Below are positions 28,373 to 39,279 of a stretch of DNA of 64,000 nt, one piece after another. Position 1 is the stretch's first letter. Every line of letters begins with the position of its first letter. The notes beneath the pieces are model-generated. The model made no database searches, was not told where the DNA came from, and worked only from the letters and a program-made list of their open reading frames with translations. The stretch is taken from the sequence record OR352946.1; one strand, 5' to 3'. The translations under genes and the position numbers were made by a program. The DNA comes from Escherichia phage AV116.

Positions 28373-28735
28373 TTAAAAGAATTTAAATTTTTTCTTGGTT
28401 CGTTCATTAAAAGCTTGTTGTACTTGCATTGTAACACATTTTTCAACATGTGGTGCAAGTTCTGCTTTTCTGTCCTGGTCAAGAACTGCAAAGTCCATTA
28501 CGATTTTACCATCAACCCAGTCTAGTTTTGTAATATAGACTATATGATGGGAACCGTCTTCAAGTGTAATCAGAATCTCTTGAATGACATTTTCCATTGC
28601 TGAACGGATAATTTTAAGAGATTCATTAAACACTCGTTCTTTGCGAATGTCCTCCCCTTCCGAAGAAGGGGATTCATCAACGATTTCTAGATTTAAATCA
28701 TCGAGATTATTCATCGAAATCTTCCATTTCGTCAA
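28373..28735 (-). CDS. 40: gp40-like protein (head vertex assembly chaperone position)
   Basis: 120-aa ORF between 41 and uvsX as in T4. Confidence 0.5.
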   Translation of the reverse strand: MTKWKISMNNLDDLNLEIVDESPSSEGEDIRKERVFNESLKIIRSAMENVIQEILITLEDGSHHIVYITKLDWVDGKIVMDFAVLDQDRKAELAPHVEKCVTMQVQQAFNERTKKKFKFF

Positions 28736-29879
28736 GGTCGTTTTCTATATCTGCTGCAGACGGAGCATCAGAAGTTTTAACCGGAACTTTAGTTGTTGCT
28801 TTGCAATTAATAAGGTCGTTAACAGCGTCATCAACTTCTTTAATAGAAGAGATAGCACCTAGTTTATATTTAGTTTCAATTGCATCTCGGAAAGGTTTGT
28901 GTTTAAACAAAGGTCCCCAGAATTCTACACAATCAGTAGCTTTAGCACGCCATGATTTTTCTTCACGAATCATTTCACCTGTTTCTTCGTCAAGGAATTC
29001 ACGAGCATACCAACCGGCTTTAGGCTTAACTACAAAACCAATTTCAGTTGCCATTTCTAACAAGCCACTGAATGGGTCAATACCGCCATCAAAATTAACC
29101 GTGATCGGGAAAGTAGATTTCTCTTTAACTGTACGAGATTTTTCCGCTTTCAACGTGAAGTCATAACCGGTCAATTCTGTACCTTCTTTAACCTGACGTT
29201 TAGAGATAAAAAATACCGTGTTGGCAGAATAAAGAATACCTGTACCACCGCCCATAATCTCTTTAGGATACAATCCGCCGATTTCCATTGCTGTATGGTT
29301 AATTGCAACACATGGAATATCTTTAATAGTCAGATAAGGAGTCACAATGCGGAACAGAGATTTAAGTGCCTTAGCACGAGACATATCACCTACAACTTTC
29401 TCGTTCAACGCATCTTCGGTTTCTTTCTTAGATGCAGTATTACCGATTGAATCGATAAAGATAATAACTTTATCACCGCGTTCAATAGCGTCAAGCTGAT
29501 TAGTCATATCAACTTTAAGTTGTTCGACAGATTGAATCGGAGTATGAACTACACGGTCTAAATCAACACCCATTGAACGAAAATAAGATTCTGAAGCACC
29601 GAATTCTGAGTCATAAAACAAACAGATTGCATCTTTATATTTCTTCATATACGCTGCAACCATAGTTAGTCCAAACAACGTTTTAAAGTGTTTAGAAGGA
29701 GCAGCAAAAATAGTTAAGCCTGATTGCAATCCTGCATTCAGAGCACCACCTAATGCAATATTCAACATCGGAATACGAGTAGGGACTTCATCACGATTAT
29801 TAAACAGCTTAGACTTAGTCAAGTCTGCAGTCATTTTAGAAGTAGAAGCTTTAATCAGACGAGATTTTAAATCAGACAT
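28707..29879 (-). CDS. uvsX: UvsX recombinase (RecA-like)
   Basis: 390 aa; RecA core with acidic C-terminus; T4 UvsX-like. Confidence 0.9.
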   Translation of the reverse strand: MSDLKSRLIKASTSKMTADLTKSKLFNNRDEVPTRIPMLNIALGGALNAGLQSGLTIFAAPSKHFKTLFGLTMVAAYMKKYKDAICLFYDSEFGASESYFRSMGVDLDRVVHTPIQSVEQLKVDMTNQLDAIERGDKVIIFIDSIGNTASKKETEDALNEKVVGDMSRAKALKSLFRIVTPYLTIKDIPCVAINHTAMEIGGLYPKEIMGGGTGILYSANTVFFISKRQVKEGTELTGYDFTLKAEKSRTVKEKSTFPITVNFDGGIDPFSGLLEMATEIGFVVKPKAGWYAREFLDEETGEMIREEKSWRAKATDCVEFWGPLFKHKPFRDAIETKYKLGAISSIKEVDDAVNDLINCKATTKVPVKTSDAPSAADIENDLDEMEDFDE

Positions 29880-29932
29880 TGTATTTTTCCATAGGCATCA
29901 TTATATTTTACTCATGTTTAAAAGATAAGATG

Positions 29933-29960
29933 ATTATATACTAAGGGTTATACAGCATTT
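29933..29960 (-). promoter_or_regulatory. candidate MotA-dependent middle promoter upstream of uvsX
   Basis: Minus aaATGCTGTA-N12-TATAAT (MotA-box-like at -30). Confidence 0.25.
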
Positions 29961-29977
29961 AAAACTTTAAATGGCTC

Positions 29978-30526
29978 TTAACGAGCCCATTTGATAATTT
30001 CTGTAATCAAATAATTACGTTCGCTTGCATTAAATCCTATAACTTTGTTAGCACCATCATGATTAAGTAATTGATACGTTTGGATTTTGTTATGAATTGC
30101 AAACTCTTCAAAATGTGAAATGACTGTATTAAAACCGAATGAAGACAAAGTAATAAGGTCGTCTTCAAAACTTTCAGTCATTTCGTTACGTGTTAAAATA
30201 ATTGTGAACACATCATGGTTTTGGCAAAGACGAACATAATCCTGTTCATAAACGTCAAGAACCGAGTCCGCATCTTGTCGAATACGTCCATAAACCCAGT
30301 TACTAATATATCCACGGTCTAATAGATAAATCTTAGTAGGGTCTAAATAATTCAACATTGTTTCGAAACAGCCAACTTCATTTCGAGACTTAACATCGAA
30401 ACGTCCATCAACCGTTCGTTTAGGGAAATCAATCTTTACATATCTTTCACTAATTTCCATTATGTCATTAATGAAAGTTGTTTTACCAGCATTATCTGGG
30501 CCATCTACTAAAATAATTTTAGCCAT
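29978..30526 (-). CDS. P-loop kinase-like protein
   Basis: 182 aa; Walker A ILVDGPDNAGKTT, Walker B IYLLDRG. Confidence 0.5.
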   Translation of the reverse strand: MAKIILVDGPDNAGKTTFINDIMEISERYVKIDFPKRTVDGRFDVKSRNEVGCFETMLNYLDPTKIYLLDRGYISNWVYGRIRQDADSVLDVYEQDYVRLCQNHDVFTIILTRNEMTESFEDDLITLSSFGFNTVISHFEEFAIHNKIQTYQLLNHDGANKVIGFNASERNYLITEIIKWAR

Positions 30527-30527
30527 T

Positions 30528-31427
30528 TTATTCCTCGATTACGACATCTTCGTATTTAGGTATATTATACGGTGAAGAAATTAAAGCGTTAAAGTAGATG
30601 AACTCACCAAGACCTGGATGGAATACTTCTTCAGGATTTTCGAAATATTGAATCTTCGGACGTCCTTTAAGAATTTGATAGTACTCAGTTTTAGTTGGTT
30701 TAAAAATTCGAATCAACGCTTCTTCAGGATACTTATTTCTGTCGAAGCTATTATTTGGATCGGTTATATAAAGCGGTTGGCCTAATTGAATTGCACATTC
30801 AACCACTTGTTCAAAACGATAGCACGGGTCACTAATTCGAAATGGATGAAAAATACCATCTAGATGAATAGGAGCCAAATCACCTACAAGACGCTGCATG
30901 ATGGAAGGACGTATAACTTTCTGCGTTACGATAATCTTATTACCATCTGCACCTGCGTTAACCAGCACTTCTTTTTGACGTTCATTCAACACAGTAGTTT
31001 GAAGTGAACGATTAACCGACAACATATCAGTTTTTAAGAATTCGTCAATATAAAAACGTGGTTTATTAGGGTCTGCAGTGATATTGAAATTGAATTCTAC
31101 ATCAAAAGCGCCGTCATATCCAGTGATATCTGTGATTAGAAAATCACAATCATAATAAGCAATTAATGAATCAACCACAAATTCATTTTCAGACCAGAAA
31201 TATTTACGAGTGTTATACGCGTTATCTTTATACCATAATGGAACAAACTTAAATTCTGGAAAAAGACGTTCGCATTCTTTAATATCAGATGCATTACGTG
31301 GATATGTAATCACATCACCCGGATTAGCACGGTGCAAATGAAGTTGGAAGTTGCCATCCTTAAGGATAGCATACTGTCCAGTTTCATAAGACCGCATACT
31401 CAAGATAGGTACGCGGAAAATAGCCAT
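30528..31427 (-). CDS. hypothetical protein at the beta-glucosyltransferase locus (candidate DNA sugar transferase)
   Basis: 299-aa ORF between uvsX and gene 42 where T4 carries beta-gt; no recognisable GT motif. Confidence 0.4.
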   Translation of the reverse strand: MAIFRVPILSMRSYETGQYAILKDGNFQLHLHRANPGDVITYPRNASDIKECERLFPEFKFVPLWYKDNAYNTRKYFWSENEFVVDSLIAYYDCDFLITDITGYDGAFDVEFNFNITADPNKPRFYIDEFLKTDMLSVNRSLQTTVLNERQKEVLVNAGADGNKIIVTQKVIRPSIMQRLVGDLAPIHLDGIFHPFRISDPCYRFEQVVECAIQLGQPLYITDPNNSFDRNKYPEEALIRIFKPTKTEYYQILKGRPKIQYFENPEEVFHPGLGEFIYFNALISSPYNIPKYEDVVIEE

Positions 31428-32143
31428 TAGTCAAGGAATCCTTTAACATAATCAAAATCACGTTCAAACACATGGGCACTTACCATGGTATGAGTATAAT
31501 CACCAACTTCTACACCACATTCGTTAGCGATATAATGAAGTAATTTTCCTTGGAGATAAAAATCCAACTGCATAACAACAGCACAGTTCTGGGAACGCAT
31601 ATGACAGTGGGTATAAAGCTTACCGTCACGAATATAATAGGTCACTGAGTCAGTACATGGATATTCAAGCGTTTCGTCTGAATCAAGCAAAGCCTGATCA
31701 GAACTTTCTAGAATTTGGAACACAACTCTTCGGGAGTTAGGCTTCTCTTTAAGTTCTTTTAGAAGAGCTGGTAATTGAGCCGCAATGCGAGGACCATAGA
31801 AAGTGTTGAAGTTCGCCGGCAAAACATCTGATTTTGGTTTAGAAATAAATTTAGCGACATTAGGATATGCCTTAAACGCTTCTTCTGCATTGGTACCACC
31901 AGAAATCATAAACTTCCAGAAGTCTTCGGCATATTCATAAGAGATGCGGTTAATACGTGGGTCGGTCATTTTGAATGATGATGGAGTGTCAACAACTACT
32001 GTCATAGACCCAATTTCATTACAACGTCCAATACGAGAATCAGTTACGAATTCCGGGTTTTCTAAAATTTCACGATTGACTGCTTTAAATGCGGTTTGAA
32101 AATCTGCGGCTTTGATATATTTCATTGTGTTATGTTTTCCCAT
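31427..32143 (-). CDS. 42: dCMP hydroxymethylase (gp42, thymidylate-synthase fold)
   Basis: 238 aa; ...RRVVFQILESSDQ...YPCTDSVTYYIRDGKLYTHCHMRSQN... TS-like active-site region. Confidence 0.6.
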   Translation of the reverse strand: MGKHNTMKYIKAADFQTAFKAVNREILENPEFVTDSRIGRCNEIGSMTVVVDTPSSFKMTDPRINRISYEYAEDFWKFMISGGTNAEEAFKAYPNVAKFISKPKSDVLPANFNTFYGPRIAAQLPALLKELKEKPNSRRVVFQILESSDQALLDSDETLEYPCTDSVTYYIRDGKLYTHCHMRSQNCAVVMQLDFYLQGKLLHYIANECGVEVGDYTHTMVSAHVFERDFDYVKGFLD

Positions 32144-32162
32144 GTTTACCTCAATACAATTT

Positions 32163-32188
32163 ATTATATACTCAATTCGTAAAGCTTA
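32163..32188 (-). promoter_or_regulatory. candidate MotA-dependent middle promoter upstream of gene 42
   Basis: Minus AAGCTTTA-N11-TATAAT. Confidence 0.25.
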
Positions 32189-32325
32189 TTTGAATTTCTT
32201 GACAATGTTGATATAACGTAAAGCTTCAGCATCGATACTTCCAAGAACACTATGAAGAAATGCGTCAGCGTAGTATTCCAATTGAACAGGTTTCTTTAAT
32301 CACTTTAGCCGCTTTAGTTTTAAAC

Positions 32326-32345
32326 AGGCCCATCAGGGCCTTTTT
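32326..32345. other. hairpin with plus-side T-run (terminator-like, orientation ambiguous)
   Basis: aggcccATCAgggcct then tttt on plus strand. Confidence 0.3.
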
Positions 32346-32422
32346 AAGAATTTGTTCGTTAGTGTTCAGTTTAATAGTCAAAATCTCTTCGTTAAGTTTA
32401 TAATTAAAAGTTTTTCTAGAAA

Positions 32423-33592
32423 TCATTCCGGGTACCTCAAAGCGTCATCAGAGTTAGTTATATCAATAATAGATATAGAGTTTTCTGCTAACCCGTTTTT
32501 AGATAATTGACGTTTATAATATCTTTCACAATATGTACACGTCGTCCCGCAGATTTCATTAGCACAATCGAAATCTGGATGTCTGAACCACCTTTTTTCT
32601 AAAAAGCCATCTAACAAAGAGGTTTCAATATTTACTGTATGTGAAAACTCAGTTTCGTTTTCAAGAGTGAAAATGGTCTCTAAAGGCTTCCACAGTTCTA
32701 ACAAATTACCTTCAAACTTTTCAGAAGCGTATGCTTCAAGAACTTTCAAAATGTAGTCTGTGCTACCTGTACGTCCTGAAACTTTGAATTGAGTGATACC
32801 AATATCATTATAAAGTTTCAAATCTTGAGGACGAACAAAACGAGTTCTCAACCAGTTAAATGGGTCTGTATCACGAGCTTTAATACAGTGCTGCATAGGA
32901 TATCCGTTTAAGGATTTAGCATCATCAGCGGTAACATCAGTACTATGGAAAATATAGCAAGAGTCACGATAGCTACAATGTGTTGTATACCCTTTACCAG
33001 CATTAGAACAGAACTCATTTACAAGAACTTCAAATATTATATTGTTCTTATTGCAAAACTCTGCTGCACGCTTCAGGAAAGAAACTGAACGGTTCTTATG
33101 AATTCCGCAGCAGACCTTTTTGATATTATACTGGTCATGCAAGTATTTGATTTGAGTTACAGCATCGACATGTAGAATTGTTGAAACTTCAATCTCAATG
33201 TCTTTATTGACTTCACGAACAATTTCCATAACAACAGGGTTAGCGATAGTAATACGCCATACGCCTATTGACCAAAGATACTGAACATAATCCTGAATAG
33301 CTTTCTTCTTCCACTCAACTAGTTCTCTTTTTGAACCAGGATTTATCGTGTTGAGTGTATAGTTAAAGCAAATACCTAATTCGTTACAACGTTTAACGTA
33401 GTCTTCTAACATCTTTTTGTCAACGTCAGGAAGCCTAAAATCAGGTCTGGCTGCTACAAAAGCCATTTCTCTTGTAGAGCCATATACTTCGTTTATCAAG
33501 CTATTAGGATAGGTTTTATTGAGCTCTACGATTTTATCAAGAAGAGCTAAATCAAAATTCGTTCCGATTTTAAAAGTATTCATTTTTTGCAT
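32423..33592 (-). CDS. Cys-rich protein of unknown function (weak peptidase-U32/TIM-barrel-like pattern)
   Basis: 389 aa; NEFCSNAGKGYTTHCSYRDSC and C-terminal CANEICGTTCTYC clusters; part of sugar cassette. Confidence 0.4.
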   Translation of the reverse strand: MQKMNTFKIGTNFDLALLDKIVELNKTYPNSLINEVYGSTREMAFVAARPDFRLPDVDKKMLEDYVKRCNELGICFNYTLNTINPGSKRELVEWKKKAIQDYVQYLWSIGVWRITIANPVVMEIVREVNKDIEIEVSTILHVDAVTQIKYLHDQYNIKKVCCGIHKNRSVSFLKRAAEFCNKNNIIFEVLVNEFCSNAGKGYTTHCSYRDSCYIFHSTDVTADDAKSLNGYPMQHCIKARDTDPFNWLRTRFVRPQDLKLYNDIGITQFKVSGRTGSTDYILKVLEAYASEKFEGNLLELWKPLETIFTLENETEFSHTVNIETSLLDGFLEKRWFRHPDFDCANEICGTTCTYCERYYKRQLSKNGLAENSISIIDITNSDDALRYPE

Positions 33593-33638
33593 CTCGCGTT
33601 AATTGATGCGATGGTTTTTGCAGGTCTTACTTAAATTA

Positions 33639-34040
33639 TTATAGATTCGGTTTATACGATTTAAATGTTTCGAATTCGCCTTTATTCATAAGAGCTTTGA
33701 ATTCGTCAGGACGCATAGCTTTGTCGTCGATAATCCAATCATATACTGGTTTATGTGTTAGCAAATTATGGTACTTCAAGCCAATGTTTGCCAAGTTCTG
33801 AATCAGACTTGGGAGAATGTCAATTGCTATACGTCCAGGACCTACTGACTTCATACCGCGAGCAGTGTAAAGCGTTATGGTATGCCCTGCATCATACAGG
33901 GCATTAATGGCAGACACCATTTCGACGTCTGGTTTGAAGTTCACGTAATCACGATTGTTATTCCACTCTGTTATACAATCATCGACATCAAAACAAAGAT
34001 TAAGCATGTTTTCTACACGGTGCATTAGATTCGTTCCCAT
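33639..34040 (-). CDS. HAD-superfamily phosphatase (small)
   Basis: 133 aa; motif I FDVDDC, motif II TLYTARG, motif IV DWIIDDK. Confidence 0.55.
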   Translation of the reverse strand: MGTNLMHRVENMLNLCFDVDDCITEWNNNRDYVNFKPDVEMVSAINALYDAGHTITLYTARGMKSVGPGRIAIDILPSLIQNLANIGLKYHNLLTHKPVYDWIIDDKAMRPDEFKALMNKGEFETFKSYKPNL

Positions 34041-35710
34041 TGATGAGTGATATCGCCACCGATTGGACGATAGGAAACACCAGTTTCTTTATCAGTTAGT
34101 ACCCATTTACCAGGATTTTTTGTAATCAGAGTAGCCGTTACAGGTTCTGCTACGTCATAACTAATAGAGCCGTCCTGAAGTACACGGCCCATGTTACGTA
34201 ATTGCTTAGTCAGAAGTTCCATACCTTTATAATATGCGGCTACCGCTTTAAGTGGATTATTCTTGAAATAACCACCTAATGCAATCCAGATAATTGCCAC
34301 AGCCAAATGATGATATTCATTAAACGAACTCAGCTTTCCATATTTGTAAACTAATGGATTGATGTTAATAGTCACATTACAAGTTGTTTCATCAATAGTA
34401 AACTGTCCCCAGGTCGGATTAGCATTGAATTCATCATAACCTGAAACAGCATAAAGCACTTTAGCTTCATCATACAATTTTGGCCCGTAAATCTTGGTTT
34501 CACCAAAATATCCACGAGGGTCGATAAATTTGACTTCGCCGTTATCAGTAATCATAGTATTACTGAAGTTCGGGTCACCATGAATAACAGAGTACTGTCC
34601 CTGAGAACGGTTATGATAACGAATAAGGTGTTCTAAAGCTTGTTTCAGCATTGGCTTCAGACGTCCAATCTTAGTGTAGTTCACATGTGTGATTTTACCA
34701 AATGAATCAATCAATGGTTGAATGCTTTCACAACGATCAATAACTTTCGTATAGAATTCTTTAGTGAAATCACGACGAACAGTTTCAGGACTTACAAAAT
34801 AAGTGTCTGTGCTGAATTTCAGTGCATCTAAAATTGCATCAACAATTTGTGGACGAGCAAGACTTGATTTGGATTTAATATATTCAAATGCCGGCTTACC
34901 TTTAATGCGTTCCATTTCAAAGTTATTTTCATTAACAGAAACTAACTGAGGAACTGAATCTGATTTCACTTTCAAATACCACGAAATCTCATCTTTCTGA
35001 AGAGCTCGACCTTGTTCAGTTAATGCGAATTTAGTTACAGTTTCTTCACCAATTTCAACTGCATTAAAACTACGATTAAGTTCACGAACTTCATGAGCCT
35101 TTTCAAGTTTAGGCATATCACCAAGGTCGATGATATTCATAAGCTCTGATTTATTGAATGCGCCGCTGTAAAGGAATTCTACGAAATCACGTCCTTTGCA
35201 GTATTCATGAATTTCCTCATCGGTAGAACCCATGTAGAATTCCCAGTCTTTGAACTGATAAATTCCTACAACATTACCACCTGTTGAACCTACGTTAGTG
35301 ATATTTTCACCGTCGAAATTATACCGACATTCATCACCCTTAACATAGATTGCGTTAACATTCCAAGACCATGAACCAAAATCAGGAATAATATCACACC
35401 AGTTAACAATTACATTATGGCCATCTAAATCTTTGTGTAATTTAGCAAGAGCATAAGCAGAACCATACGCTTCATCAACTGTACGAATAGTCACATTGAA
35501 CCCTTCTTGCTCACAATAAGCTCGAACAGTTTCAGCAAATTTTGAATGAACTACTACGATAATTTCATCTGCGCCAAGGTCAGAATAAATTGTATACAAA
35601 TTGCTCAGAATAGTGTCTTGTTTATAGTTAACAAGCACCTTAGGAATATGATGCGTTATTGGATACAAACGAGTTGCCAGTCCAGCACCAAGAATAACAG
35701 CTTTTTTCAT
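34025..35710 (-). CDS. bifunctional sugar-1-phosphate nucleotidyltransferase / APH-type kinase
   Basis: 561 aa; N-terminal MKKAVILGAGLATRLYPIT (G-x-G-x-x-T-R-L NTase motif); C-terminal HGDPNFSN Brenner motif of aminoglycoside/choline kinase family. Confidence 0.65.
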   Translation of the reverse strand: MKKAVILGAGLATRLYPITHHIPKVLVNYKQDTILSNLYTIYSDLGADEIIVVVHSKFAETVRAYCEQEGFNVTIRTVDEAYGSAYALAKLHKDLDGHNVIVNWCDIIPDFGSWSWNVNAIYVKGDECRYNFDGENITNVGSTGGNVVGIYQFKDWEFYMGSTDEEIHEYCKGRDFVEFLYSGAFNKSELMNIIDLGDMPKLEKAHEVRELNRSFNAVEIGEETVTKFALTEQGRALQKDEISWYLKVKSDSVPQLVSVNENNFEMERIKGKPAFEYIKSKSSLARPQIVDAILDALKFSTDTYFVSPETVRRDFTKEFYTKVIDRCESIQPLIDSFGKITHVNYTKIGRLKPMLKQALEHLIRYHNRSQGQYSVIHGDPNFSNTMITDNGEVKFIDPRGYFGETKIYGPKLYDEAKVLYAVSGYDEFNANPTWGQFTIDETTCNVTININPLVYKYGKLSSFNEYHHLAVAIIWIALGGYFKNNPLKAVAAYYKGMELLTKQLRNMGRVLQDGSISYDVAEPVTATLITKNPGKWVLTDKETGVSYRPIGGDITHQWERI

Positions 35711-35745
35711 GTTGAAGTCCTCATTGGTAAGTAGGAGTATTGTAC

Positions 35746-35895
35746 ACTATTCTAGTTAAAGCATTCATACTTTGCTTGTAGTCCAATCATAATCCATCCA
35801 ATCACAAGTGTTGGAATCATTACCGGAGCCGTTAAGCTCCAGTAGATAGTCATGACAAGCATCAATAGTAAAAGTCCTATTGTTATTGCTTTCAT
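35746..35895 (-). CDS. small membrane protein (49 aa), not in ORF track
   Basis: ATG 35895 overlaps upstream stop (ATGA); MKAITIGLLLLMLVMTIYWSLTAPVMIPTLVIGWIMIG... Confidence 0.35.
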
Positions 35896-36527
35896 TGTTC
35901 GCCTCGTAACATGGCACCTAGTGCACCGCCTGGATGGAACTTAAGGAAATCATTAGAGGTAAATCCACGTTCAGACGAAAGGTTGATAGCAAACGTATCG
36001 ATAAGCGCTAACAACAATGTAGTGGACATAGTCGGAGCTAAAGAGTTCTCGTCAACTTCTACCGCGATACCGGTACAGAACGTATAATCAAAAAGAGCTT
36101 CGTATTCTTGTGGAATGTCAGGGTTACAATGTAACAGAATCTGTTTAACCTGAGGACGAATCATACGAAGATGTTTAGCAACACCTATCATTTCTTCAGT
36201 CTTACCAGAACGACTGATGTGAACTAATACATCATTAGGTGCAATAAATCCTGCGTCACCATGAGAATAATGCCCAGTGTTCAAGTACATACTTGGGATA
36301 CCGAGTGAAGCAAAAGTCTCGGAAGCTTTAGTTGCGATATTAGCGTTCTTACCAACACCTGTAATAATTACCCGGCTTTCATAATTACTAAGTCCAGGGC
36401 GTCGAAGAGTTTCTAGAATAGCGTTATAACGAGCAGGGTTTTGACTAATTACTTTAGCCATAGTGGCAAGAGATGAAGCTTGTTTTACGATTGCGTCAAT
36501 AGCGATAGTGATTGGTGTAGTTTTCAT
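35892..36527 (-). CDS. SIS-domain sugar-phosphate isomerase, KdsD/GutQ-type (D-arabinose-5-phosphate isomerase-like), no CBS domains
   Basis: 211 aa; GVGKNANIATKASETFASLGIPS, HGDAG, ISRSGKT, LAPTMSTT, FHPGGALG align with API SIS domain. Confidence 0.7.
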   Translation of the reverse strand: MKTTPITIAIDAIVKQASSLATMAKVISQNPARYNAILETLRRPGLSNYESRVIITGVGKNANIATKASETFASLGIPSMYLNTGHYSHGDAGFIAPNDVLVHISRSGKTEEMIGVAKHLRMIRPQVKQILLHCNPDIPQEYEALFDYTFCTGIAVEVDENSLAPTMSTTLLLALIDTFAINLSSERGFTSNDFLKFHPGGALGAMLRGEQ

Positions 36528-36567
36528 ATTTCTCTCATTTAATTAGTTGGCCGTCCTTGGCATTATA

Positions 36568-39279
36568 TCAAAAATCAAACATATCGAACAGAGATGCTTT
36601 CTTCTCGTAATCGAGTTTAGCTGCTGATGTGAATCCTTCAAGTGGTTTAATAAATGTCTTCTCAAGGAGAACAGTGTAGTCCATCCAATGAAGTACATCG
36701 TCTTTAATTAAATCTGTGATTTCAGTACCAGAAGGCCATGCGATACATTTATCACCGAATGGGTTTCCTTCACGTAAAGGCAGAACATATACTTTTTCAC
36801 CTTCTACAACTTGCGGTGCATCGATATTACCTTTGATAGCCCGGTTATACGTCAGAATTCCACGAATATGGAACGGGCATTTAGGACCAGGGAATCCACC
36901 GACATCATATTTAGCAATGTTATTCGCAGAAGATACCGACGCGATGCTAATATAATTCAATTGACGGAATTCTTTTTCAAACTCTTTAAAATATTCTTGT
37001 AATGATTCTTCACCTTCTTGAAGCATACGACGAATACATTCTTTAAGAGCTTTCTGTACTGCTTTAGGGGTCGAAGATTTCTGAGTCTCTAGACCCATGA
37101 TTTTGAGTTTAGGCTCAGCGTAACGAGTGCCTTCCATATCCCACACGTTTAATGCATAACGTTTCTTACCAGTCCAGAATCCACCAATACCTTTAGAACC
37201 GAGCGGAGGACCAGCGATAGCTTCTCGGTCCATGAACATTAAGTGTTGTTTATTGTTCATGTATTCACACATTTCACGGAAACCTCTATCAATAGCTGGT
37301 TCCATACGTTCACGTGCAAACTTATCTAAGAAGTCTACCCAATGGTTGGTATCACGGAATTTAGATTCACCAACCTTATCGATAATTTTATCAGCAGATA
37401 CGTAAATAGAGTCTGTATCACCATAAAGAACGAAAGCTTCACCTTCTGTACCACAAACTTCATTCAGATATTCATTAACTTTACGTTCAATCCACTGTAA
37501 AGCCATTTGCCCGAATGTTGTGATTGCAGTAGCATTACGCAAATCATAATAACGGAACCAAACGTTGCCAAGTGCACCATAAAGTGAGTTGATAAGCAAT
37601 TTACGGTTAATTTGTGCAGTCATACCTGCAACTTCAGTACGTTGAGCTCTAAACAACATTTCATTAAGAGATTTAGCAGACAACTTTTTAATCTTTTCTT
37701 TAATCTCATCACTGAAGTCGAAACGATAATCAACATCTAATGGTTCGTCAATAGAAAGATTAGGATTATGCAATGCCTCTTTAATTATTTCACCATTACG
37801 TTGAGCTGCAAGCATGTAACCTTTATGTTCTTTACGTTGATTAAAGACCTTAGTGATTTCAGTTGGAACTACACCATCACGGTCTTTATAATACATCATG
37901 CCGTTAGGAGAACAACTGTACACATCTGAAGGACGTTCAGCGATTGCGTTAATATAATCATGTAATGGAGCTACTTTAAACGTTCCTGCTATTGTTTCTG
38001 GGCTAATATTCACTTGGCGAATGATGCTTGGATACAGAGATGTAAGGTCGAAACTCATTACATATTTGTATCGATTTGGAATAGGTTCCTTAACAAAAGC
38101 GCCGGGATAAGGTTGAACCGGGTGAGAACGACCTTGTGGAATCACCTTGTTCTGCTCTTTAAGGCTATTAAAAATAATAGCATCCCATGTTTTAATTGGG
38201 CTAAACACAGATTGAATCTGTATCTTAGCATAATAACCCATGTCCAAGCTCAAGTTGATGAACTGACGCTTAGCATCAATTTGCAATACACGATACACGT
38301 CGATAATGTTATAAGAAATATATCGTTGGTGATTGCTTTCACGAAGCTTAGAAATAGGGCCGTCATATTTCAGTTTACCAACGTTCAATTCAAATTCTGA
38401 AATGTAATCCAGAGAATACGACGGTTGATTGGTAAAAGAGAATTTTTTGTAAAGGTCAATGTAATCAAGAACAGAGATACCGAACAATGTAATGATTTCA
38501 CGAGAACCATACATGTTTTCGATAACTTTAACACGAGTTTTACGATGTGGCGATAAACGTTTCGCAGTAGATTCGCCAAAAATATTCTTGATTCGGTTAT
38601 ACACATATGGAATATCAAATGACTCAACGTTCCATCCGGTTAAAATGACAGGAGTTTTCTGTTGCCAGAAATTGAGATATTCCATCAATAATTCTTTTTC
38701 GTTATCGAACGGCATATAAATGATTTTATCGATAATTTCAGATGGAACTTCATCACCACCTTGTTCTTGAAGCTTAGCAGCGATTTCAATAGACCATTCT
38801 TCTACATTACCATACGGAGAATTCAATAGATCAAATACGTAGAACCTGTCGTCAATTGAGTCATAATGGGTGATAGCATCAATAGGATGCTTTGCTTGTG
38901 CCGGCTCAGGGAACCCGTCCGGAGATGTTACTTCGATGTCGAAGTTAGCCACACGAATTTTTGTATGGTCGTATTTGATTTCATAGTTATAAGTGTCAGA
39001 CAAATACGCCAATTTGAAATCGTCCATGCCAAGTGCTTCAAGTCCGATATCTTCCATGCGTTTAATCCATTGGGAGGCATCACGCATATTAGCGAACAAC
39101 TTACGAGTACACGGCTTACCGTAGATATCGAAATATTTCGTAGCCTGACTTTCTGGACAATGAGCAAACAGTGATGGTTTATATTCTACTTCACGAGTAC
39201 GTTCACGGCCATTAGAATCGATGTAACGTTCAAAAATTGAATCACCAATCTGTTCAACCGTTAAGTAAAATTCTTTCAT
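36568..39279 (-). CDS. 43: DNA polymerase (gp43, family B)
   Basis: 903 aa; YGDTDSIYV motif C, exonuclease motifs; T4 gp43-like. Confidence 0.95.
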   Translation of the reverse strand: MKEFYLTVEQIGDSIFERYIDSNGRERTREVEYKPSLFAHCPESQATKYFDIYGKPCTRKLFANMRDASQWIKRMEDIGLEALGMDDFKLAYLSDTYNYEIKYDHTKIRVANFDIEVTSPDGFPEPAQAKHPIDAITHYDSIDDRFYVFDLLNSPYGNVEEWSIEIAAKLQEQGGDEVPSEIIDKIIYMPFDNEKELLMEYLNFWQQKTPVILTGWNVESFDIPYVYNRIKNIFGESTAKRLSPHRKTRVKVIENMYGSREIITLFGISVLDYIDLYKKFSFTNQPSYSLDYISEFELNVGKLKYDGPISKLRESNHQRYISYNIIDVYRVLQIDAKRQFINLSLDMGYYAKIQIQSVFSPIKTWDAIIFNSLKEQNKVIPQGRSHPVQPYPGAFVKEPIPNRYKYVMSFDLTSLYPSIIRQVNISPETIAGTFKVAPLHDYINAIAERPSDVYSCSPNGMMYYKDRDGVVPTEITKVFNQRKEHKGYMLAAQRNGEIIKEALHNPNLSIDEPLDVDYRFDFSDEIKEKIKKLSAKSLNEMLFRAQRTEVAGMTAQINRKLLINSLYGALGNVWFRYYDLRNATAITTFGQMALQWIERKVNEYLNEVCGTEGEAFVLYGDTDSIYVSADKIIDKVGESKFRDTNHWVDFLDKFARERMEPAIDRGFREMCEYMNNKQHLMFMDREAIAGPPLGSKGIGGFWTGKKRYALNVWDMEGTRYAEPKLKIMGLETQKSSTPKAVQKALKECIRRMLQEGEESLQEYFKEFEKEFRQLNYISIASVSSANNIAKYDVGGFPGPKCPFHIRGILTYNRAIKGNIDAPQVVEGEKVYVLPLREGNPFGDKCIAWPSGTEITDLIKDDVLHWMDYTVLLEKTFIKPLEGFTSAAKLDYEKKASLFDMFDF

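Follow-up and report, generated by a model that had tools for sequence, protein, structure and literature searches.

A U32-family protein as a candidate oxygen-independent cytosine hydroxylase in the DNA arabinosylation region of Escherichia phage AV116

The window analysed here is a stretch of 64,000 nucleotides from Escherichia phage AV116 (OR352946.1), and our subject is a gene cassette within it that encodes arabinose-activating enzymes together with a cysteine-rich protein of the U32 family, for which we propose a role in the hydroxylation of cytosine. An earlier interpretation made from the letters alone (the sequence-only reading) had described four minus-strand open reading frames (ORFs) between the DNA polymerase gene and a thymidylate synthase (TS)-fold gene, and all four were found where it had placed them (Table 1). 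They form part of a tight, co-directional run of minus-strand genes that extends from the polymerase gene (36568-39279) to uvsX (28707-29879), with start and stop codons overlapping at several gene junctions of the cassette. T4 lacks these genes, as had been claimed, and has imm and imm.1 alone in the interval between its genes 42 and 43. The window is of the Mosigvirus (RB69-like) type: many Mosigvirus genomes from Escherichia and Shigella share a 4.4-kb region with it at 98-99% identity, and the cassette occurred at a nucleotide identity of at least 95% in 153 phage records. The GC content was 0.36-0.41, and because the composition of the cassette is uniform with that of its flanks, we do not regard it as a recent foreign insertion.

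Three of the four genes belong to the sugar branch. The 211-amino-acid (aa) protein encoded next to the polymerase gene matched the SIS domain (PF01380, E 8e-10), the KpsF/GutQ model TIGR00393 (E 9e-32, model positions 2-153 of 268), the KdsD model (E 4e-30, model positions 47-202) and phrog_5670 (E 2e-116). No CBS domain was found in it by profile search, the chain ends at 211 aa and only the SIS half of the model is covered, which agrees with the proposed KdsD/GutQ-type isomerase lacking CBS domains. The 561-aa protein begins with a nucleotidyltransferase domain (NTP_transferase, PF00483, E 8e-10) in whose GxGxR loop G10 and R14 are invariant, and it showed a weak match to HddC (E 1e-4). Its family profile, searched against the PDB, found LicC (1jyk, E 9e-9) and otherwise likewise nucleotidyltransferases, and no kinases. 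A kinase fold for its C-terminal half is predicted from motifs, weak Pfam matches (E 0.002-0.009) and published structure comparisons; the loop H377-G-D379...N384...D397 was invariant in eight homologues, down to 27% identity. The 133-aa protein belongs to a HAD capsule-phosphatase family (TIGR01689, E 4e-13) and carries a DVDD motif I (D18-V-D20). The SIS, nucleotidyltransferase and HAD assignments of the sequence-only reading were hence matched well in profile searches, and its APH-type kinase weakly. The isomerase was 97.6% identical to its counterpart in phage HY126, the fusion protein 96.6% identical to HY126 AfhE and the phosphatase 100% identical to HY126 AfhF.

On the other side of the cassette lies the TS-fold gene, which had been taken for a gene 42 orthologue producing hydroxymethylcytosine (hmC). 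This assignment did not hold. The protein matched PDB entries 9iqc and 9ir2 (E 8e-161, 98% identical), which represent the HY126 TS homologue at 100% identity, and was 97.9% identical to the HY126 protein. In an alignment with E. coli ThyA and T4 gp42 it has D169 of ThyA replaced by N and N177 by D (RSQN...LD) and keeps Cys146; T4 gp42 keeps Asp169, is only about 20% identical, and the T4 locus gave no tblastn match with this protein at E 1e-3. D169N is the signature of 5-hydroxy-deoxycytidine monophosphate (5-hydroxy-dCMP) synthases, and the TS-fold gene of these phages makes 5-hydroxy-dCMP with flavin and O2 (PMC13326640). The AV116 protein is by this signature a predicted flavin/O2-dependent 5-hydroxy-dCMP synthase, not a dCMP hydroxymethylase. 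Since the gene 42 neighbour is of this type, the acceptor base should be 5-hydroxycytosine (5hoC) rather than hmC. The adjacent GT1 gene product was 99.3% identical to its HY126 counterpart and belongs to a type identified as a glycosyltransferase by structure comparison (PMC13326640). A thymidylate-kinase-like (Tmk-like) gene follows and accompanies the module in T4-like phages. The orthologues of the isomerase, AfhE, AfhF, the TS-fold enzyme and GT1 form one co-directional cluster in the same order as in HY126, and we are highly confident that the region is a Mosigvirus (RB69/HY126-type) module for arabinofuranosyl-5-hydroxycytosine DNA.

The cassette is therefore already known, and the window is a further ordinary member of a published system. 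Thomas et al. 2018 (PMC6024577) found arabinose in RB69 DNA and implicated this module, with the SIS protein ORF055c and the corrected ORF53_52c of 561 residues among its members. Mass spectrometry (MS) and nuclear magnetic resonance (NMR) then identified beta-D-arabinofuranosyl-(1-3)-alpha-D-arabinofuranose (Araf) directly on 5hoC in RB69 DNA (Lee et al. 2026, PMC13326640), and Araf-O-5-cytosine has been demonstrated in virion DNA of RB69, NP, Bas46/47 and HY126 (PMC13326640, PMC13390438). The statement that the enzyme set was not a characterised pathway was overtaken by this literature: a description of the module appeared in 2018 (PMC6024577), and its characterisation followed in 2025-2026. 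As PMC13326640 relays from He et al. 2026, the C-terminal APH/choline-kinase-like domain of HY126 AfhE phosphorylates C1 of Araf-5-phosphate to the 1,5-bisphosphate, AfhF removes the 5-phosphate to give Araf-1-phosphate, and the N-terminal nucleotidyltransferase of AfhE converts Araf-1-phosphate to UDP-Araf; a GmhB-like structural match was noted in PMC13326640. In AV116 the SIS protein would thus divert ribulose-5-phosphate to D-arabinose-5-phosphate, the kinase domain of the fusion would form Araf-1,5-bisphosphate, the HAD phosphatase would strip the 5-phosphate, and the nucleotidyltransferase domain would produce UDP-Araf. The TS-fold enzyme would supply 5-hydroxy-dCMP with the use of flavin and O2, and glycosyltransferases would add Araf to the 5-hydroxyl after replication.

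The sequence-only reading had arrived at a related scheme, in which arabinose-5-phosphate is dephosphorylated to free arabinose, rephosphorylated at C1, converted to a nucleoside diphosphate (NDP)-arabinose and placed on the hmC of a gp42 orthologue. Its phage-made route from ribulose-5-phosphate to an NDP-arabinose for modified cytosine was right in kind, but hmC as the acceptor was not, given the D169N-type TS neighbour with 98% identity to 9iqc. The domain set is formally compatible with free arabinose as an intermediate, RB69 DNA was initially reported as arabinosyl-hmC (PMC6024577), and Table 1 of PMC13326640 still words the step as dephosphorylation of Araf5P to Ara. However, NMR and MS of RB69-type DNA show Araf joined to C5 through oxygen without a methylene group (PMC13326640, PMC13390438), and in the HY126 biochemistry, as relayed in PMC13326640, the kinase precedes the phosphatase and no free arabinose is formed. 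We consider the scheme through free arabinose and hmC very improbable.

This leaves the cysteine-rich 389-aa protein, the counterpart of RB69 gp50. It had been described as having an unknown fold, which we can correct: it matched Peptidase_U32 (PF01136, a TIM barrel family) with E 7e-11 and 42 bits against a gathering cut-off of 22. Searched by sequence, the PDB gave no match at E 1 or better, and an AlphaFold2 (AF2) model (pLDDT 87.6, pTM 0.89) had the U32 protein 5d88 as its top solved match. The databases held 282 relatives. In an alignment of 24 homologues, down to 46% identity, ten cysteines were invariant, namely C161, C180, C195, C206, C212 and C236 and a C-terminal CX4CX3CX2C group at 343-355. 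Among the four U32 paralogues of E. coli, RlhA was the best match (hhalign E 3.5e-5, 194 columns), with E161, C169 and C176 of RlhA aligned to the invariant phage residues E193, C206 and C212, and the C-terminal four-cysteine group is common to both proteins. RlhA needs Fe-S clusters and functionally requires its C-terminal cysteine group, and its prephenate requirement was established genetically (PMC5727448). For UbiU/V prephenate is the proven oxygen donor (PMC10990095), and the characterised non-protease members of the family are linked to prephenate-dependent, O2-independent hydroxylation (PMC10990095, PMC5727448). Purifying selection on the gene is strong in Mosigvirus (dN/dS 0.055 relative to HY126).

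Database annotations call such proteins "peptidase" or "collagenase-like protease", and 5d88 is itself named a U32 peptidase, and we therefore weighed a peptidase whose function lies outside DNA modification. The most conserved residues of the phage protein are, however, the ten cysteines and the glutamate common to the hydroxylase paralogues, every lineage examined had the gene in a context of nucleotide or DNA metabolism, and the peptidase activity of the family is poorly founded (PMC5727448, PMC6747719). Of the readings we weighed, the peptidase is the least probable. As a separate observation, residues 343-355 contain a radical-SAM-like CX3CX(aromatic)C triad inside the invariant CX4CX3CX2C group, and separate radical SAM/SPASM genes were located 1-8 kb from the U32 gene in three other loci (L001, L007 and L008).

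The distribution of the U32 gene differed from that of the sugar genes. It was found in 221 phage records, all with at least 80% identity, and the hosts among the matches listed were all Enterobacterales or Shewanella. The fusion gene was present in 373 phage records, and although 57 of these were phages of Acinetobacter, a strict aerobe, no Acinetobacter phage was among the U32 matches listed; DLP1 has its HAD gene and TS homologue directly side by side. Among T4-like phages the U32 gene occurred only in genomes with a 5hoC-type TS homologue and GT1. Species-representative genomes yielded twelve U32 matches, mostly from gut anaerobe lineages (Oscillospiraceae, Romboutsia, Gastranaerophilaceae, Tannerella, Clostridia), one of them at a prophage end in a Phocaeicola faecalis isolate. 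At this prophage end (L069, 3984-7137) a 267-aa gene and a guanylate-kinase-methyltransferase fusion (PF00625 E 8e-20, PF08241 E 1.5e-9) precede the U32 gene, which hints at a hydroxylate-then-methylate variant. A gene for an anaerobic ribonucleotide reductase is also present in RB69-type phages (PMC13390438), consistent with a way of life in which replication takes place under anoxia as well.

The genes adjoining U32 pointed to prephenate. DAHP (3-deoxy-D-arabino-heptulosonate 7-phosphate) synthase is the first enzyme of the shikimate pathway and chorismate mutase catalyzes the prephenate-forming step. In Erwinia phage Virsaitis27 a chorismate mutase gene (PF01817, E 1.7e-11, above cut-off) lies between the U32 gene and the TS homologue, and tblastn found chorismate mutase genes in 54 phage records, from phages of Serratia (LC53, 92A1), Klebsiella, Yersinia, Proteus, Providencia, Edwardsiella, Enterobacter, Pectobacterium, Erwinia and Shewanella (Thanatos). 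Positions were compared for 16 of these 54 phages, and in all 16 the chorismate mutase gene was downstream of U32 on the same strand at a distance of at most about 400 nucleotides. In Thanatos the pair had moved across the TS, transferase and kinase genes and was still together. DAHP synthase genes stood beside U32 in seven metagenomic or metagenome-assembled genome (MAG) loci. In five of them a chorismate mutase domain directly followed (Table 1), as one confirmed fused ORF in L047; L002 and L033 had DAHP synthase alone. We also considered whether these DAHP_synth_1 genes might be Kdo-8-phosphate synthases using arabinose-5-phosphate and rejected this, as DAHP synthase models scored far higher (E 3e-70 against 3e-17), outscoring Kdo-8-phosphate synthase models by 30-50 orders of magnitude.

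Outside the T4-like phages we compiled 44 U32 loci, viewing metagenomic contigs within 8-10 kb on either side of the gene. Relatives with about 50% identity were encoded on large phage-like contigs with DnaE-type polymerases and had dCMP deaminase, thymidylate-kinase-like, dUTPase and uracil-DNA glycosylase (UDG) genes as neighbours. A GT1-type transferase accompanied U32 in 25 of the 44 loci, often directly adjacent, while the SIS and nucleotidyltransferase-kinase fusion genes did so in about 13. A TS of the 5-hydroxy-dCMP synthase type was seen near U32 in none of the 44; the lone TS match (L035) is ThyA-like and keeps D169. One of the modules (L047) reads GT1, SIS, fusion, Tmk-like, DAHP synthase-chorismate mutase, HAD and U32. 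Two arrangements are recorded here for themselves. In DnaE-type phages L001 (9447-11086) and L004 (7504-9083) U32 is directly preceded by a dCMP deaminase gene, and the polymerase has a UDG domain fused to it or encoded next to it, so the hydroxylated base might there be derived from uracil instead of cytosine. In L006 (5777-14179) the genes on either side of a U32 relative are a GT1-type gene, a TET-associated glycosyltransferase (PF20691, E 4e-8), dUTPase/DCD and UDP-galactopyranose mutase (GLF), which suggests a galactofuranosyl, not arabinofuranosyl, decoration on the same type of base.

These data bear on the possibility that the U32 protein is an enzyme of the sugar branch that tailors or supplies the pentose rather than the base. 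In the window its gene is located between the HAD and TS genes, the roughly 13 loci with SIS and fusion genes show the same company, and Table 1 of PMC13326640 labels RB69 gp50 a "sugar or heterocycle reductase". Yet U32 is kept where the cluster has no SIS gene (Klebsiella Marfavirus L014, Proteus L031), where replacement sugar genes are present (GLF in L006) or where no sugar genes were seen (L007, L036, L040, L046, L048, L055), and conversely Acinetobacter phages and Dhakavirus have the sugar branch without U32. Characterised U32 proteins include no sugar enzyme, and a role in sugar synthesis would give no reason for the linkage to chorismate mutase and DAHP synthase. A sugar role is improbable in our view. 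The sequence-only reading was right that the cysteine-rich protein is a genuine part of the cassette and probably wrong to enlist it in sugar synthesis, since on our evidence its context ties it to base hydroxylation: across unrelated phages it travels with GT1 and prephenate-supplying enzymes, not with the arabinose genes. The sugar branch itself varies. In Klebsiella phage Kpn BM7 (L014) and Escherichia phage JS98 (L015) the fusion gene (42-43% identical), HAD, Tmk-like, D169N-type TS and GT1 genes are kept and SIS is not in the cluster, and the sugar or its source may differ from that in the window.

A prephenate-dependent hydroxylase could also act on a polymer, either on cytosines of phage DNA or on host or phage RNA, where 5-hydroxycytidine or 5-hydroxyuridine (ho5C/ho5U) would tune translation. 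T4-like phages encode tRNAs, and RlhA is the closest E. coli paralogue. The substrates of RlhA and TrhP are RNA polymers (PMC5727448). Against this stand the absence of RlhA's DUF3656 region from the phage protein, which is half the length of RlhA, and the restriction of U32 among T4-like phages to genomes with the 5hoC-type TS and GT1. The gene is moreover embedded in DNA-precursor modules (dCMP deaminase, Tmk-like kinases, dUTPase, polymerase genes), and exclusion of dCTP from T4-like DNA would leave few unmodified cytosines as targets there. We regard a polymer substrate as unlikely, if somewhat more credible than a sugar role. The nucleotide-kinase neighbours argue that the protein probably acts at the nucleotide level.

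Taken together, the U32 protein would be an Fe-S enzyme of the RlhA/TrhP/UbiU type that hydroxylates C5 of cytosine, most likely on dCMP, with prephenate replacing O2 as the oxygen donor, and it would provide a second, anaerobic route to 5hoC beside the O2-dependent TS-fold enzyme. We infer that it makes the 5-hydroxyl because it is dispensable in phages of strict aerobes and because no O2-dependent hydroxylase lies within the region examined where U32 stands by itself. On sequence and gene context we lean slightly towards this prephenate-dependent, O2-independent cytosine C5 hydroxylase. The combined account, a published cassette plus a U32 hydroxylase, we hold to be reasonably probable. Opinion is evenly divided for us on the wider proposal that this is the first U32 hydroxylase acting on DNA precursors, serving as backup to the TS enzyme in T4-like phages and, with a GT1-type transferase, as the only route to glycosylated 5-hydroxypyrimidines in many uncultured phages linked to anaerobes.

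Several observations weigh against a U32 hydroxylase. The Acinetobacter phage DLP3 makes tri-arabinosyl-5hoC without U32, so that the protein is dispensable in air (PMC13326640). JS98 and other Dhakaviruses, which infect E. coli, encode a D169N-type TS homologue but no U32; JS98 also has no chorismate mutase gene. A strict rule by which phages of facultative anaerobes would always have U32 was tried and is broken by JS98. The genus of the window itself has no chorismate mutase gene and would depend on host prephenate. The similarity to RlhA has an hhalign probability of 72%, UbiU and TrhP were matched weakly, and UbiV was not matched by the phage family in hhalign. Only half of the canonical CX6CX15CX3/4C pattern is matched, the phage spacing being C195-X10-C206-X5-C212-X23-C236: the C206/C212 pair is separated by X5 in place of X6, and the third and fourth canonical positions are not cysteine, with the invariant C195 and C236 nearby. 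Ligand positions do vary within the family, as UbiU and UbiV show (PMC6747719). Finally, a TS-type hydroxylase could be encoded elsewhere on the metagenomic contigs, beyond the 8-10 kb viewed.

The discussion in PMC13326640 mentions pathways of RNA pyrimidine hydroxylation without tying them to gp50. Full-text searches found no published work that ties U32, prephenate or chorismate mutase to these phages; they did not extend to Mahler et al. 2025 (Cell Host Microbe) or He et al. 2026 (Nat Chem Biol), either of which may already assign or exclude a role for U32. A phage Tn-seq preprint lists no essentiality results for the cluster of LC53 or Bas46. The cassette as such adds nothing new; it repeats a published pathway by which phages protect their DNA against restriction and CRISPR nucleases. 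What remains of value is a specific and cheaply testable hypothesis on the lone unexplained gene of a topical pathway. To our knowledge, the only described route to 5hoC needs molecular oxygen. The enteric hosts of these phages live in largely anoxic habitats, and T4-like phages keep ordinary dCTP out of their DNA. If the hypothesis is true, U32 would explain how modification, and hence replication, goes on without O2, and would account for the chorismate mutase and DAHP synthase genes of phages. Prephenate-as-oxygen-donor chemistry would be extended from quinones and RNA to DNA. U32 with a GT1-type transferase would then be a marker of glycosylated hydroxypyrimidine DNA in uncultured phages that lack a TS-type marker, and the system would be relevant to the choice of therapeutic phages and to their predicted sensitivity to type IV restriction under gut conditions.

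Table 1. Genes of the cassette and its neighbours in the window, followed by DAHP synthase-chorismate mutase genes beside U32 in other loci (positions within each locus)
Feature	Coordinates	Strand	Remarks
SIS-only D-arabinose-5-phosphate isomerase	35892-36527	-	211 aa; orthologue of RB69 gp55 / HY126 XAN60481; predicted to convert ribulose-5-phosphate to arabinose-5-phosphate
Hydrophobic small ORF	35752-35895	-	47 aa; phrog_3610, E 7e-27; kept in the cassette
AfhE-type nucleotidyltransferase-kinase fusion (kinase predicted)	34025-35710	-	561 aa
AfhF-type HAD phosphatase	33639-34040	-	133 aa
Cys-rich U32-family protein, Fe-S-type (RB69 gp50)	32423-33592	-	389 aa
Small ORF	32265-32426	-	53 aa; phrog_8601
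TS-fold 5-hydroxy-dCMP synthase (predicted)	31427-32143	-	238 aa
Predicted base-proximal DNA arabinosyltransferase GT1 (RB69 gp46:47 type)	30528-31427	-	299 aa; phrog_3891, E 3e-156
Thymidylate-kinase-like P-loop nucleotide kinase (RB69 gp45)	29978-30526	-	182 aa; phrog_761 thymidylate kinase, E 2e-45
DAHP synthase-chorismate mutase	L047 7302-8357; L044 8417-9421; L049 8344-9384; L045 3-968; L062 6931-7965		

Two small ORFs complete the cassette. An ORF of equal size to the hydrophobic one (47 aa) occupies the same position in HY126 and Virsaitis27. The 53-aa ORF downstream of U32 fills the slot that chorismate mutase holds in other genera and has no similarity to chorismate mutase. It matched phrog_8601 over positions 1-52 of 79, and the remaining sequence of this family continues in another frame on the minus strand of 32144-32426 (…YADAFLHSVLGSIDAEALRYINIVKKFK); the HY126 counterpart is broken elsewhere (40 aa). 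The ORF seems to be a frameshifted member of this family of 79-aa phage ORFs and may be a decaying or slippery small gene. A tblastn search of 32100-32460 with three phage chorismate mutases found no remnant (best E 0.1, on the wrong strand), and for this reason we consider Mosigviruses to be truly without the gene. A scan of 29800-36700 for promoters and terminators found 22 against 25 expected from shuffled sequence, and hence no excess. Among these, a sigma-70-like TTTAAA-N16-TATAAT at 33665-33638 (minus strand), located where the HAD gene ends and shortly before U32 begins, is a pointer to possible separate expression of U32, in a scan that overall was not above chance. The arabinose module is also a target of mobile endonuclease genes: a Seg-like homing endonuclease gene lies between the HAD and U32 genes in Virsaitis27 (L003, 5352-5990), and Escherichia phage a20 has an annotated homing endonuclease next to its fusion gene.

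Among known systems the closest is the Afh cluster of HY126, or gp45-gp55 of RB69, which comes from the same genus with the same gene order and proteins 96.6-100% identical; nothing substantive differs, and the U32 gene is present there too. The T4 system of gp42 and the alpha- and beta-glucosyltransferases shares with the window the slot between polymerase and uvsX, a pre-replicative change of the base by a TS-fold enzyme and post-replicative glycosylation. It differs in that the window has 5-hydroxy instead of 5-hydroxymethyl, flavin/O2 instead of methylene-tetrahydrofolate, and a phage-made donor sugar where T4 uses host UDP-glucose. The isomerase aligns over its full length with the SIS catalytic domain of KdsD/GutQ/KpsF but is missing the tandem CBS domains and scored 105 bits against an equivalog cut-off of 505. 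The order of sugar-phosphate, 1,n-bisphosphate, sugar-1-phosphate and NDP-sugar is that of the heptose pathway (HddA/GmhB/HddC type), whereas the cassette would use a pentose substrate, fuses kinase and nucleotidyltransferase, and has a kinase of predicted APH/choline-kinase fold. For the U32 protein the nearest relative in kind is RlhA (YdcP), the 23S rRNA 5-hydroxycytidine-2501 synthase, which shares the U32 domain, the aligned glutamate and cysteine pair and the C-terminal cysteine group. The chemistry of RlhA is the C5 hydroxylation of cytosine that we propose for the phage protein, and its need for prephenate parallels the phage linkage to chorismate mutase. The phage protein has 389 aa against 653 in RlhA, lacks DUF3656, has its third and fourth cysteines displaced, and would act on a deoxynucleotide or DNA instead of rRNA. 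UbiU/UbiV with UbiI/H/F, and TrhP with TrhO, are pairs of an O2-independent, prephenate-using U32 enzyme and an O2-dependent partner (PMC6747719, PMC10990095), and the same logic is proposed here for the phage. Unlike those pairs, the phage pair would be phage-encoded, would have a TS-fold enzyme as its aerobic partner and no UbiT-like factor, and would often bring its own chorismate mutase or DAHP synthase.

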